DNA of 64,000 nucleotides from Candidatus Babeliales bacterium (GTDB lineage Bacteria > Babelota > Babeliae > Babelales > Vermiphilaceae). The stretch lies in NCBI GenBank assembly GCA_963743635.1, contig CAVUQO010000003.1, positions 96,001 through 160,000 on the forward strand. The letters run 5' to 3'. Below the pieces are notes generated by a model that saw nothing but the letters and a program-made list of their open reading frames with translations, ran no database searches and had not been told where the DNA came from. Made by a program: the position numbers and the translations under genes. Shown here piece by piece: positions 51,274-63,731 of the stretch (position 1 is its first letter; each line of letters starts with the position of its first letter).

Positions 51274-53748
51274 TTATTGAATGCGCGTTATGGCGATAGT
51301 GGCACATGTTGGAATAGTGGTGTTTGCAATAGTTGAGCTTGTTAATCTTGTGAGATAGCAAGCATTTGCCGCAGCAACTTGAAAACCTATTACTGCAGGC
51401 AAGCTCGTAATATTGACCAGTAATGCATTATCGATGTTTGAGATGCTTCTGAGATTAGTAGCAAATAATGTAGCGGTTGGGCGTATACTCGTCTGACTTC
51501 CTTTAATCTCGGCACCATTAAGCATAACGCGGCCAGCTGCTGTGGTTGGTGGCGCGCCTGAAGCAAGTTGCAACCCATAGCGATAATCTATTTCATAAAG
51601 GCCGGTATAGCTTGCCGAAAAACCGGTATATGATCCTGTGTTGCCCAAAGTACTCCAGCCATCAAGTACCGGAGCTGTCCAGAATCGCACCAATTGGTAC
51701 GTACTTGGGCATGCTATATTTTGATACCCGGTTGCATACGCGAATAGGCTACCGGTAAGTGAAGGGCCAGGATCCCCCGTATTACCAGTTGCTCCAGTAG
51801 CACCGGTATTTCCGGTCACACCAGTTGCACCAGTGTTTCCAGTATTACCTGTATTACCGGTATTACCAGTGTTTCCAGTATTACCTGTATTACCGGTATT
51901 ACCAGTGAGTCCAGTATTTCCGGTCACGCCAGTTGCACCCGTATTACCATCATTTCCAGTGTTCCCAGTATTACCCGTATTACCGGTATTACCAGTGAGT
52001 CCAGTATTTCCAGTGACGCCCGTATTGCCGGTGTTACCAGTGTTTCCAGTATTACCCGTATTACCGGTGTTGCCAGTGAGTCCGGTATTTCCGGTGACGC
52101 CAGTTGCACCCGTGTTACCATCATTACCAGTGTTCCCAGTATTTCCTGTATTACCCGTATTACCAGTGAGTCCGGTATTTCCAGTGACGCCCGTAGCTCC
52201 AGTGTTACCAGTGAGTCCAGTGTTACCAGTGTTACCAGTGTTTCCAGTATTACCTGTATTACCGGTATTACCAGTGAGTCCAGTATTTCCGGTCACGCCA
52301 GTTGCACCCGTGTTACCATCATTTCCAGTGTTACCAGTGTTTCCAGTATTTCCTGTATTACCCGTATTACCAGTGAGTCCGGTATTTCCAGTGACGCCCG
52401 TATTGCCGGTGTTACCAGTGTTCCCAGTATTTCCTGTATTACCAGTATTACCAGTGTTTCCAGTGAGTCCGGTATTTCCAGTCGTACCTGTTGCGCCTGT
52501 GGTTCCCGCCCCGGTTGCCCCAGTTGCGCCAGTATTGCCGGTGTTACCAGTGTTTCCAGTGAGTCCGGTATTTCCAGTCGTACCTGTTGCGCCTGTGGTT
52601 CCTGCCCCGGTTGCCCCAGTTGCGCCGGTATTACCGGTGTTTCCTGTATTACCCGTATTACCAGTAGATCCAGCCCCAGTTGCACCAGTAGCTCCTGTAT
52701 TTCCTGTTGCTCCGGTAGCTCCAGTTGTGCCGGTATTCCCAGTCGTACCTGTTGCGCCTGTGGTTCCTGCCCCGGTTGCCCCAGTTGCGCCAGTATTACC
52801 GGTGTTTCCTGTATTACCCGTATTGCCGGTAGATCCAGCCCCAGTTGCACCAGTCGCGCCGGTGACCCCCGTAGCCCCTGTAGCGCCTGTATTACCCGTT
52901 GAGCCTGTATTGCCAGTGTTTCCTGTTGCGCCAGTTATTCCCGTTGGGCCTGTAGGCCCACCAGATGGACCAGTTGCTCCTGTTGCGCCCGTTGGACCAG
53001 TTGTTCCAGCGCCGGTGTTTCCTGTATTTCCGGTTGCGCCCGTAGCTCCGGTATTTCCTGTTGCGCCAGTTATTCCCGTTGGGCCTGTAGGCCCACCAGA
53101 TGGACCAGTTGCTCCTGTTGCGCCAGTTGGACCAGTTGTTCCAGCACCGGTGTTTCCTGTATTTCCGGTGTTTCCAGTGGCGCCAGTATTACCAGTGTTG
53201 CCCGTTGGCCCTGTAGCGCCGTGCCCAGCTATACCATTGCTGATACACGCACTTTTTGCTTGTAAATTATTCACATACAGGGTTCCAAGTACGGTAAGAT
53301 TTTGAAATGTTGGGGATGCAGCTCGTACACCACTCGTTAACTCAAGAGCGAGTTGTTCGTCTTGCAATTGATCAAGATATGTTTTGAATATGTTTTCTAA
53401 AATACATACCGATTTTGTTTTTTGTTGTTTGATAATTTCAAGCACATTGATAATACCGCGCAATGCGCAACTTTCAGGAACTATCGTATATCCTTCTTGA
53501 ATTGCATCGATAAGATTTAAAAAATCGTTTGAATATGTATGGGATGGATAATGCTGCGGAGTCAAGATAAGCGCATTGCGTATGAGATCAGGAATTCGAA
53601 CAAATAGTTGGTCTGAATGCGCTTCAAGGAGCTCAATATCTTTTTGAGATAAGGAATTTAAAGGATCAACTTCATTGATCGCTGGGGCCGTGCATATGAT
53701 TTGAAGATTGAACCACATAAGGAGGGCAGCTAAATATTTACTTTTCAT
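51274..53748 (-). CDS. Collagen-like (Gly-X-Thr) surface protein with globular C-terminal domain, BclA-like
   Basis: Signal peptide, helical N-domain, about 480 aa of [15 protein letters not shown] triplets, beta-rich C-terminus with GLYEIDY. Confidence 0.9.
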
Positions 53749-53915
53749 AATTCTCTCTTTTTTTTGATTCTTTTCATTTCTCTGTATAACGTTTTTTTGA
53801 ATTTGTCGATAGTTTTTTGCATACATTTTCAAAAAAAAGTGTACCTATATATAGCAAACAACAGAGTAAGAATGAACATTCGATAACGTTTACACTACAA
53901 TGAGGAGCCGTACAG

Positions 53916-62538: not shown

Positions 62539-62543
62539 TTACT

Positions 62544-63731
62544 ATGATGAAAAAGCTACTACTCATCTACCTTATTTTGATTGCCCACTCTCTTTGCGCA
62601 TATCAAGATGTTGTCGTTATAGTTTTAATGGTTAAAGATGAAGAAGCTTTTATGGCTAAAACATTAGAGCCATTTGTTCAAGCGGGGCTCCACTCATTTG
62701 TAATCTTTGATACCGGCTCAACGGATAATACCATTGCGGTAACTGAAGACTTTTTCAAAAGTCACCATGTTGCGCATTATGTGATTACACAAGAACCATT
62801 TATTGATTTTGCAACATCAAGAAATCGCGCGCTTGATTTTGCAGAGGAGCAGTTTCCTGATTCTCCCTTTTTTCTCATGATCGATGCCGAATGGTATATG
62901 CATAATGTAAAAGGCTTGATCGATTTTTGTGTGCAGAATCTTGAAAATCCTATTCCTGCTTACCTGATAAGAATTGTTAATCCAATTATTAGTTTCACGG
63001 TGCCGCGGCTCGTAAGAGGCAAAAGCGGAAAACGTTTTATTGGCGTTGTTCATGAAAACATTCCATTGGATATTGATGCAAGAGTGCCGAATGATACGTA
63101 TTTTGAGCTTGGAGTGAGTCGATATGGGCATGAGAAATCTAAAAAGCGATGGGAGCGAGATATCAATCTCCTTTTGAAAGAACATGAAAAAAAACCGCAT
63201 GATTCGCGAACAACCTTTTATTTAGCGCAAACATATGAATGTTTAGGTGATGCCTATAATGCCTATCGCTACTATACAATAAGAGCAGGGCAAGTGGGGT
63301 GGCCTGAAGAGGATTATGAAACATTGTATCGACTTGGTTATATAGCCGAATTCCTTTCTTTCACCGATAAAAGTTATACGTGGGATATGGCGTTTAGTTA
63401 TTATTCTATAGCACATAAGATATTGCCACATCGTGCAGAACCGCTCATACGCATCGCAGAACATTATTGGTCAGACGCTGGATCCAACATTCCATTATGT
63501 TATTTATTTGCAAAACGGGCATGTGAATTGCCATATCCAGAGCATGATTACTTATTTATAAATCCCTATTTCTATAACTTTAAGCGCTATGAAGTGTTGA
63601 GCAATGCCGCTTTAAGCATGCAGGATTGGCAAATTGGTGAAGCGGCAACAAGGCACGCTCTTTCTGTTGCCGATCTGCCGCATTTGCGCGCTAATCTTGC
63701 GGCATATGAGCAGCGGCAAGTTAAATCTTAG
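62544..63731 (+). CDS. GT2 glycosyltransferase with TPR-like helices, tandem paralog
   Basis: Same motifs, collinear with the preceding gene. Confidence 0.85.
   Translation: MMKKLLLIYLILIAHSLCAYQDVVVIVLMVKDEEAFMAKTLEPFVQAGLHSFVIFDTGSTDNTIAVTEDFFKSHHVAHYVITQEPFIDFATSRNRALDFAEEQFPDSPFFLMIDAEWYMHNVKGLIDFCVQNLENPIPAYLIRIVNPIISFTVPRLVRGKSGKRFIGVVHENIPLDIDARVPNDTYFELGVSRYGHEKSKKRWERDINLLLKEHEKKPHDSRTTFYLAQTYECLGDAYNAYRYYTIRAGQVGWPEEDYETLYRLGYIAEFLSFTDKSYTWDMAFSYYSIAHKILPHRAEPLIRIAEHYWSDAGSNIPLCYLFAKRACELPYPEHDYLFINPYFYNFKRYEVLSNAALSMQDWQIGEAATRHALSVADLPHLRANLAAYEQRQVKS

Follow-up and report, generated by a model that had tools for sequence, protein, structure and literature searches.

Can a bacterium add sugars to a collagen outside its own cytoplasm? 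To our knowledge, bacterial glycosyltransferases (GTs) of the Leloir type are taken as cytoplasmic, because nucleotide sugars are unavailable outside the cell. The question is raised by seven consecutive genes (positions 51274..63731) at the right end of a 64,000-nucleotide stretch of DNA, here called the window, from a Candidatus Babeliales bacterium of the Dependentiae. The assembly (G000) consists of three contigs with a total of 1.45 Mb, and its completeness is 85%. One of the seven genes encodes a collagen-like fibre protein (P0001) and four encode GTs: a four-module enzyme (P0002), a single-domain relative of human COLGALT1 (P0003), and two paralogous enzymes with a GT2 domain and tetratricopeptide repeats (GT2-TPR; P0006 and P0007). 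The fibre is probably sugar-coated outside the cytoplasm, because all four of these adjoining sugar-adding enzymes start with signal-like peptides. An initial annotation of the window had read the locus as a collagen glycosylation system working outside the cytoplasm, possibly on host nucleotide sugars. Its observation is confirmed, and its interpretation is partly supported.

We consider it fairly probable that the cluster makes and decorates a surface fibre, and that its exported GTs O-glycosylate Thr residues of the collagen after export. The fibre would be a Sec-exported collagen of the BclA type, consisting of a signal peptide, an N-terminal domain, 158 triplets (mostly Gly-X-Thr), and a BclA_C/C1q-like trimer head. 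The four GT-A enzymes would be exported as well and would use nucleotide-sugar donors to O-glycosylate Thr in the Y position, either in the periplasm or on the cell surface. The GT2-TPR enzymes, which are SgtA/GmaR-like, would most likely place the first sugar on Thr, and the COLGALT1-GT1-like enzyme and the four-module GT would then extend the glycan. Thr as the acceptor, the order of the enzymes, the functioning of the N-termini as Sec signals, the compartment, and the source of the donors are all points that we infer.

The source organism is an intracellular, non-sporulating diderm of the protist-parasite type. A TLC-family ATP/ADP translocase, a marker of energy parasitism, is encoded in the window (30763-32154 (+); PF03219, 2.7e-27). 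C. destructans, a cultured member of the Dependentiae, replicates in the cytoplasm of its host, according to the available part of its description (PMC6561590). A search of sequencing runs placed G000 sequence in the DNA of peat and soil metagenomes, with no RNA dataset among the matches listed.

The collagen-like fibre protein

The repeat region of P0001 consists of 158 G-X-Y triplets (78 GNT and 34 GAT, then GTT, GLT, GVT, and GPT), and the Y position is Thr in 150 of them. Its 492 residues include 11 Pro and no Lys. The initial description of about 160 triplets, with Thr in nearly every Y position and little Pro, agrees with these counts. Ten breaks of one or two residues interrupt the triplets, and the DNA of the region is made of nested tandem repeats with periods of 18-171 bases. 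The gene (51274-53832 (-)) and that of the 1100-residue GT P0002 (53916-57218 (+)) are divergently transcribed, again as had been described.

The domain ahead of the repeats (residues 53-199) gave only chance-level matches in Pfam and no family. The C-terminal head of P0001, taken alone, reached no Pfam family either, and a direct phmmer search of the PDB gave a chance match only. Among 1.84 billion representatives, 46 contain a related domain, most of them at the C-terminus and many behind G-X-T repeats. A profile of 22 of these relatives matches BclA 1wck (5.6e-7) and 9h38 (3.5e-8), and PF18573 (BclA_C) is matched by 11 of the 22 family members and C1q by six. The head is likely to be a trimerising one of the BclA_C/C1q type, an assignment made at the level of the family profile only. 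Because it combines a signal-like N-terminus, a collagen region, and a BclA_C/C1q-like head, P0001 is best described as a BclA-type collagen with a Sec-type signal.

Bacillus anthracis BclA (1wck) has the same order of parts, namely an N-domain, a G-X-T collagen, and a C-terminal C1q/TNF-like trimer head. The triplets of BclA are GPT repeats, whereas those of P0001 are mainly GNT and GAT. While BclA has an exosporium-targeting N-terminus, that of P0001 is of the Sec type; the 'MEELGLSHILNAEGEKLQ' type of its Firmicutes relatives is absent from P0001, which has a signal-peptide-like N-terminus instead. The proposed benefit of glycosylation for P0001 is stabilisation of the triple helix, as in the cuticle collagen of Riftia pachyptila. 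This animal protein is poor in hydroxyproline, and galactosylated Thr in the Y position stabilises its triple helix.

The genome encodes a second, shorter collagen-like protein (P0363; contig C1, 11777-12949 (-), locus L098) with a signal-like N-terminus. It is laid out as a helical N-domain, 13 G-X-T/A triplets, and a beta-rich C-terminal domain. BLASTP finds no significant similarity between it and P0001 outside the repeats.

The glycosyltransferases

P0003 resembles the N-terminal GT1 domain of human COLGALT1 and no other part of that protein. Its residues 41-271 match with an E-value of 2.1e-28 (26-265 of 9evj_A; 13-252 of 9u7j_a), and weaker matches are found to the accessory domain of LH3 (~7e-6) and to Mimivirus R699 (0.03). 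The AlphaFold2 (AF2) model (pLDDT 83.2, pTM 0.80) has its best Foldseek match in COLGALT1 9evj (TMq 0.72, rmsd 2.2, 27% identity), followed by LH3 (0.65), R699 (0.54), and SpsA, RmlT, and TarP (~0.5). P0003 is, in sequence and fold, a homologue of the GT-A domain shared by COLGALT1 GT1 (9evj), the accessory domain of LH3/PLOD3 (6fxk), and Mimivirus R699 (9dyt). It has no Pfam match at all, Glyco_transf_25 included, and consists of a single domain that lacks the catalytic GT25 domain. In human COLGALT1, the GT1 domain binds UDP-Gal and Ca2+ yet is structural and non-catalytic, and the GT25-type GT2 domain is the catalytic one, as stated in the available part of the report (PMC12003778). The initial label of a COLGALT-like GT holds as far as homology to COLGALT1 is concerned, but the homology is to the non-catalytic GT1 domain and not to the catalytic GT25 domain.

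P0003 lies outside the GT25 collagen galactosyltransferases, because the catalytic domain is absent and P0001 offers no Lys acceptor. The acceptor cannot be hydroxylysine, since the repeat region has no Lys; this point rests on the absent Lys, and no search was made for a lysyl hydroxylase in the genome. The DxD motif, which in human GT1 binds UDP-Gal and metal, is retained in P0003, and P0003 is likewise signal-bearing and collagen-associated. The mean column identity of its family is 58%. The motif D152-C-D154 is invariant in 25 aligned homologues, as are D238, D250, and D262, and D192 is nearly invariant. In human COLGALT1, D192, D250, and D262 align with T, F, and C, and D238 falls in a gapped stretch. 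These four acidic residues (D192, D238, D250, and D262) are candidate catalytic residues. Through this homology, a large family of collagen-associated bacterial enzymes would be connected with a domain of the human collagen galactosyltransferase so far regarded as 'structural'. In eight homologues (P0023, P0030, P0037, P0039, P0048, P0065, P0082, and P0103; ~500 aa, with signal-like N-termini), a P0003-like GT is fused to an S-adenosylmethionine-dependent methyltransferase.

The initial annotation also listed two GT2-TPR genes nearby, and P0006 and P0007 correspond to them. Their Pfam GT2 matches (20.8 and 23.0 bits) fall just under the cut-off of 23.3, and TPR_12 and TPR_17 are matched below threshold. 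The only solved structure similar to the GT-A half is Listeria GmaR (PDB 22ao; 1.8e-4 for residues 24-214 of P0006). Designed TPR proteins are matched as well, and many homologues of the two enzymes have precomputed GT2 and TPR Pfam domains. A GT-A domain followed by TPR repeats is the architecture of SgtA and GmaR. A predicted complex of P0006 (21-397) with P0003 (36-297) scored 0.04 and 0.28 against a mark of 0.32, which is evidence neither way.

The description of P0002 as a four-module GT is upheld module by module to different degrees. Module 2 is firm: it matches PF00535 (3.2e-16), and VIA aligns it with K4CP (2z86_B; Z 25.3, rmsd 2.4, 226 aligned) and with SpsA (Z 23.7). The evidence for module 4 is good. 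Scanned alone, it matches PF13704 (2.1e-6; 28.6 bits against a cut-off of 27.5), and a weak GmaR match covers residues 804-928. For module 3 the evidence is structural or weak. Pfam GT8 (0.0042) is below cut-off, and heparosan synthase 2 (8vh7_A) aligns with residues 265..780, that is, modules 2 and 3, over 397 residues with an rmsd of 20.6; this value means that both domains match and that their mutual orientation differs from that in P0002. Module 1 is one that we infer, as Pfam gave no match and an Atlas search gave weak GT8/Nucleotid_trans leads (132-139 shared features). The AF2 model of P0002 has an overall pLDDT of 84.6, with low values at residues 128-146 and 182-240. A second look at this model with VIA was dominated by module 2 and barely covered modules 1 and 4. 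The four modules recur in other combinations or as separate genes in homologues, and each such homologue has its own signal-like N-terminus directly ahead of its first module (39 of the 73 rows listed). Most homologues without a signal-like start exceed 1000 residues and contain methyltransferase, TPR, or sulfotransferase domains; the few named ones come from free-living bacteria.

Signal-like N-termini

The four GTs, the collagen, and the two genes between them all start with a K/R-flanked hydrophobic stretch of 15-19 uncharged residues. In the GTs, positive residues are followed by 15-19 mostly hydrophobic uncharged residues, then by acidic residues, and then by the first GT-A strand. P0006 and P0007, for example, start with MLKK and MMKK and 17 uncharged residues directly ahead of this strand. 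The AF2 models have a lone N-terminal helix (residues 2-30 in P0003 and 2-16 in P0002) followed by a low-confidence linker. The signal calls rest on hydropathy, charge, and conservation, by which a cleaved signal and an uncleaved anchor are indistinguishable.

A hydrophobic N-terminus is present in 114 of 120 COLGALT1-like homologues. Its sequence varies, and its position just before the first conserved strand does not; many of these homologues have typical A-X-A-type ends after the hydrophobic stretch. Among the GT2-TPR homologues the count is 102 of 120, and the 18 misses are mostly borderline cases or gene calls that start inside the first strand. Grouped by record label, all six Dependentiae loci have an N-terminal extension of 24-33 aa on the COLGALT1-like GT (11-residue hydropathy 1.95-2.83), and all seven Chlamydiae loci have the hydrophobic N-terminus. 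None of the 26 Firmicutes loci has it (extension 2-15 aa). Proteobacterial fusions start 1-17 residues ahead of the first strand, with no hydrophobic stretch, and the 79 viral loci include no stand-alone COLGALT1-like form with a signal-like N-terminus. Collagen open reading frames (ORFs) have signal-like N-termini in Chlamydiae and Dependentiae loci, not in Firmicutes, and in some of those from Proteobacteria. An N-terminus that is conserved as a feature and variable in sequence supports export of the four GTs.

Linkage of the glycosyltransferases to Thr-rich collagens

Synteny in related genomes holds in part. One relative (G008) has a collagen, a multi-module GT, a COLGALT1-like GT, and a GT2-TPR gene together, and another (G016) has a collagen, a COLGALT1-like GT, a GT2-TPR gene, and a GT2 module together. 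Two more (G017 and G024) have the COLGALT1-like GT and GT2-TPR genes together, and G009 and G029 have the COLGALT1-like GT alone within the stretch fetched.

A wider comparison covers 79 loci with a COLGALT1-like GT from a species-level genome collection, in which a collagen ORF of at least 20 triplets was looked for within 10 kb. Three of the homologue loci coincide with loci of the Babeliales relatives. A collagen ORF is found in 29 of the 79, and in 27 of these at least half of the triplets have Thr in the Y position. Sorted by record label, the collagen is present in 12 of 26 Firmicutes loci, 10 of 18 from Proteobacteria, one of six from Dependentiae, one of seven from Chlamydiae, and five of 22 others. 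The 49 collagen ORFs of these loci have Thr in the Y position in 5113 of 5969 triplets. As G000 has three ORFs with at least eight triplets in 1.45 Mb, a chance neighbourhood would be expected in about a few per cent of cases, a background taken from G000 alone. In 12 proteobacterial loci the GT2-TPR and COLGALT1-like domains form one ORF, whose GT2-TPR part is 24-31% identical to P0006/P0007, and in two further loci a GT2-TPR module lies directly upstream of the COLGALT1-like domain. Among 41 Babeliales genomes, seven have a COLGALT1-like GT, and all seven have Pfam Collagen matches; a collagen is found in 16 overall (Fisher p 5e-4, the genomes being kin and not independent). Synteny, the neighbourhood across phyla, the fusion, and the co-occurrence together support P0001-type collagens as substrates of the neighbouring GTs. 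The linkage claimed initially is upheld by the last three of these and is loose in the lineages whose GTs carry signals.

A quick unrooted tree of 137 GT domains places the Firmicutes in one group (support 91) and the proteobacterial fusions with one viral clade (99). The rows of Dependentiae and of Chlamydiae do not separate from each other, six rows requiring six changes. This tree settles neither a single gain of the signal nor the donor lineage.

Some observations on the loci themselves may be added. Viral contigs often encode a COLGALT1-like GT: there are 125 such stretches, some of them from giant-virus assemblies as long as 610 kb. Among the viral loci L101-L179, a collagen ORF is nearby in six of 79, and in five the GT has a long N-terminal region fused to it. 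At nine loci (L017, L020, L026, L027, L029, L035, L045, L049, and L052), the record titles, for example 'uncultured Pseudomonadota', 'Saccharimonadales', and 'Epsilonproteobacteria', look unreliable. The GTs of these loci have a signal of the Dependentiae/Chlamydiae type and group with those lineages in the tree, and one of the loci coincides with a genome placed in the window's own order.

A second cluster with signal-like N-termini and the supply of donors

Contig C2 carries another cluster (~57300-78900; loci L095 and L096), in which almost all of the roughly 17 genes start with a signal-like segment. It encodes two signal-bearing Sulfotransfer_1 proteins and a relative of dTDP-glucose 4,6-dehydratase (PDB 6bi4, 2.3e-74; TIGR01181, 310 bits, under the cut-off of 365), the Rossmann fold of which begins at residue 41, behind a hydrophobic stretch. 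It also encodes GT2, STELLO-like, and RXYLT1_C-like proteins, separate copies of P0002 modules 1-4, a metallophosphoesterase, and an M17 aminopeptidase. The signal segment is missing only from an FkbM methyltransferase and from a GT2 resembling polyprenyl-phosphate-sugar synthases. No collagen ORF of at least eight triplets is near this cluster. For a nucleotide-sugar dehydratase to be of use after export, nucleotide sugars would have to exist outside the cytoplasm.

Where would such donors come from? Host UDP-sugars and 3'-phosphoadenosine 5'-phosphosulfate (PAPS) could reach the periplasm through porins or could meet secreted enzymes; two secretins are encoded in the genome. A supply from the host and an export of the bacterium's own UDP-sugars seem to us about evenly balanced. 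The idea of the initial annotation that host nucleotide sugars are used is not borne out by gene content, as GalU-like and GlmU enzymes of the cytoplasm are encoded. The former is just under its cut-off (311.8 against 326.8 bits), the latter scores 450.9 bits, and neither has a signal.

A wider scheme appears to us possible rather than probable. In Dependentiae and many environmental Chlamydiae there might be a Golgi-like pathway outside the cytoplasm, run on nucleotide sugars and PAPS that diffuse in from the host, with the collagen as a product; dozens of Sec-exported Leloir GTs, sulfotransferases, and an NDP-sugar dehydratase would act in the periplasm or at the surface. In the same scheme, the COLGALT1-GT1/LH3-accessory domain would belong to an old and widespread family dedicated to Thr-rich bacterial collagens. 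If it is true that GTs, sulfotransferases, and a nucleotide-sugar dehydratase carry export signals only in intracellular lineages, these parasites would be using the host cell as a donor pool for their own surface.

Alternative explanations

Several observations weigh against glycosylation of the collagen by exported GTs. All four GTs have a signal-like start, as first claimed, and the K/R-flanked hydrophobic stretches bear this out; such a start is unexceptional here, however, as 560 of the 1063 G000 ORFs of at least 150 aa pass a crude signal test, and seven exported genes in a row are consequently not rare. This background agrees with the 44% of coding sequences reported to carry signal peptides in C. 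destructans (PMC6561590). The human GT1 domain, to which P0003 is closest among solved structures, is non-catalytic, and activity of P0003 is suggested only by its conservation and DxD motif. In the signal-carrying lineages a collagen within 10 kb is rare (Dependentiae 1/6, Chlamydiae 1/7, unnamed or other 5/22), and nine of the 34 Babeliales relatives without a COLGALT1-like GT have a collagen all the same. With a GalU-like enzyme and GlmU encoded, donors would be present in the cytoplasm, and gene content does not require a host supply. A search of the genome for nucleotide-sugar transporters found no TPT, and two tandem EamA transporters match Nuc_sug_transp below threshold only. Some of these points lead to other readings of the locus. 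The exported GTs may be host-directed or general surface-glycan enzymes, acting on host proteins and glycans or on other parts of the envelope, with the collagen a mere neighbour. We consider this unlikely. It would account for the signal-like N-termini on about half of the proteome (the 44% of C. destructans include presumed effectors, according to the available text of PMC6561590), for a GT and sulfotransferase cluster on C2 with no collagen nearby, and for the scarcity of collagen within 10 kb in named Dependentiae and Chlamydiae loci (2/13) and in viral loci (6/79). It leaves aside that the GTs neighbour Thr-rich collagens in 12/26 Firmicutes and 10/18 Proteobacteria loci, which have no host, that all seven GT-bearing relatives have collagen genes and the synteny recurs in G008 and G016, and that SgtA, the nearest characterised architecture, acts on Thr of collagen repeats.

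Glycosylation of the collagen before Sec export is a workable alternative, because some proteobacterial collagens are signal-bearing and their GTs are not (L072, L084, L087, and L090). The N-termini of the four GTs would then be anchors or unused signals, and UDP-Glc and UDP-GlcNAc made by the cell itself would serve to glycosylate the collagen on the cytoplasmic side. Presumably this is how the fused, cytoplasmic GTs of Proteobacteria act; the signal-less GalU-like enzyme and GlmU could make the donors, and uncharged stretches of 15-19 residues could be short anchors. HMW1C and Aah/TibC are known to glycosylate adhesins in the cytoplasm before Sec export. We nevertheless judge this course improbable for the present locus. 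In P0003, P0006, and P0007, positive residues before the hydrophobic stretch and acidic ones after it favour an orientation with the N-terminus in and the C-terminus out, and many homologues have typical A-X-A-type ends. The same type of N-terminus stands on the collagen and on the barrel-like P0004, both of which have to be outside, and a gain of the segment only in intracellular lineages would be left unexplained. Far less probable still is that the GTs build lipopolysaccharide (LPS) core, O-antigen, or capsule. Such GT2 domains are common in polysaccharide clusters (NCBIfam gives sub-threshold WcaA, TuaG, and EpsE), and the C2 cluster has at its edge a signal-less GT2 resembling polyprenyl-phosphate-sugar synthases. 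Leloir GTs that build lipid-linked glycans, however, act at the cytoplasmic face and have no signals. The linkage across phyla is to collagens and not to wzx/wzy-type genes, although no search was made for the latter. A search for LpxC gave no match in G000 or in any of 24 further genomes from the window's family, of which several are single contigs with 95-98% completeness, while among 16 other families of the order 5 gave a match. Its absence weakens the LPS alternative, and the family may be without lipid A. Decoration of the collagen Thr by GTs that have themselves been exported is the reading that we retain.

Comparison with known systems

The system resembles BclA3/SgtA and BclA and appears to differ from them in the type of bacterium that carries it, in the export signals on all of its enzymes, and in its COLGALT1-GT1/LH3-accessory-like family. 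C. difficile SgtA (358 aa) consists of a GT-A domain and four TPRs and uses UDP-GlcNAc to attach beta-O-GlcNAc to Thr residues of the BclA3 collagen repeats, according to the available part of the report (PMC7157674). The gene lies beside bclA3, as the initial annotation had also stated. As in the present locus, a Thr-rich collagen stands beside a GT-A plus TPR enzyme, and P0006 and P0007 share with SgtA its two-part build and its approximate size. It is by architecture that P0006 is likened to SgtA. While SgtA has no signal peptide and works in the cytoplasm of the mother cell during spore formation, P0006 and P0007 carry predicted export signals, and here the bacterium is a non-sporulating intracellular diderm with three further GT genes, one of them four-module.

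Another enzyme of the SgtA/GmaR architecture is Listeria monocytogenes GmaR (22ao). GmaR is a flagellin O-GlcNAc transferase and hence a protein O-glycosyltransferase. Its similarity to P0006 is weak, and it is a cytoplasmic enzyme that acts on flagellin and doubles as an anti-repressor.

Leloir-type bacterial enzymes that work outside the cytoplasm on a host nucleotide sugar have a precedent in Chlamydia trachomatis, which reportedly synthesises glycogen in the lumen of the inclusion from host UDP-glucose (a finding attributed to Gehre et al. 2016). In that case type III signals are involved and the product is a storage polymer in a vacuole, whereas the signals predicted here are of the Sec type and the presumed acceptor is a protein.

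A literature search gave no account of collagen-like proteins or of exported GTs in Dependentiae or Chlamydiae, and the available part of the C. destructans paper (PMC6561590) contains neither 'glycos*' nor 'collagen'. The locus would provide a testable set of enzymes and substrate for collagens that are Thr-glycosylated and free of hydroxyproline, a type of interest for making recombinant collagen materials.

Other features of the window

Table 1. Features of the seven-gene locus (positions in the window)
Feature	Position	Strand	Remarks
Collagen-like fibre gene P0001	ORF 51274-53832; likely coding sequence 51274-53748	(-)	start at Met 29 (window 53748)
P0001 signal-peptide-like N-terminus	53677..53748	(-)	ORF residues 29-52; MKSK, hydrophobic stretch, TAPA
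P0001 N-terminal non-collagen domain	53236..53676	(-)	residues 53-199 (147 residues)
P0001 collagen triple-helix region	51760..53235	(-)	residues 200-691; Pfam Collagen PF01391, E 3.8e-62
P0001 C-terminal globular head, probably of BclA_C/C1q kind	51277..51759	(-)	160 residues; assigned via family profile
Multi-module GT P0002	53916..57218	(+)	1100 aa; signal-like N-terminus, residues 1-19
P0002 module 1 (putative)	53973..54701	(+)	residues 20-262; alpha/beta start; DxD-like SDIDM at residue 106
P0002 module 2, GT2-type GT-A domain	54702..55421	(+)	residues 263-502; NVDDR at residue 355
P0002 module 3, second GT-A-like domain	55422..56300	(+)	residues 503-795
P0002 module 4, Glyco_tranf_2_4	56301..57215	(+)	residues 796-1100; LDVDE at residue 894
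Single-domain GT P0003	57243..58136	(+)	297 aa; COLGALT1 GT1 homologue; signal-like N-terminus; invariant D152-C-D154
Exported protein P0004	58324..60024	(+)	566 aa; family unassigned; last residue Phe
Exported protein	60111..61025	(-)	304 aa; Ig-like domain matches, sub-threshold
GT2-TPR a (P0006)	61345..62538	(+)	397 aa; signal-like N-terminus; DTGSTD at residue 56, DAE at 114-116
GT2-TPR b (P0007)	62544..63731	(+)	395 aa; paralogue of P0006, 61% identity; signal-like N-terminus

P0004 is possibly a barrel-like outer-membrane protein. An Atlas search gave unnamed clusters only, together with a Phenol_MetA_deg lead with a 21% share. A 25%-identical relative of P0004 adjoins the COLGALT1-like GT in locus L019. 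A scan for promoters and terminators over 51000-64000 was uninformative, with fewer consensus sites (24) than in shuffled sequences (36.3). Directly after the second GT2-TPR gene, an ORF (63734-64000 (-)) runs beyond the end of the window; it starts with MVTATSSNSSNAGIWGVNNGATSTIIG and is 359 aa long in the genome. It is rich in Gly, Ser, Thr, and Asn, and its start is not signal-like.

The best MurG-type (Glyco_tran_28_C) match of the genome (G000:C3:452885-453325 (-)) has one internal TAA stop, and a second, intact match lies in the window at ~13516-13980. Rows of paralogous beta-propeller genes (WD40, lactonase-like, and DUF5122) occupy 32320-39701 (+) and 44368-51361 (-) of the window, with an alanine racemase without a signal among them. 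Each of these propeller paralogues opens with a near-identical signal-like peptide (e.g., MKRIFGMAVG...HAME).

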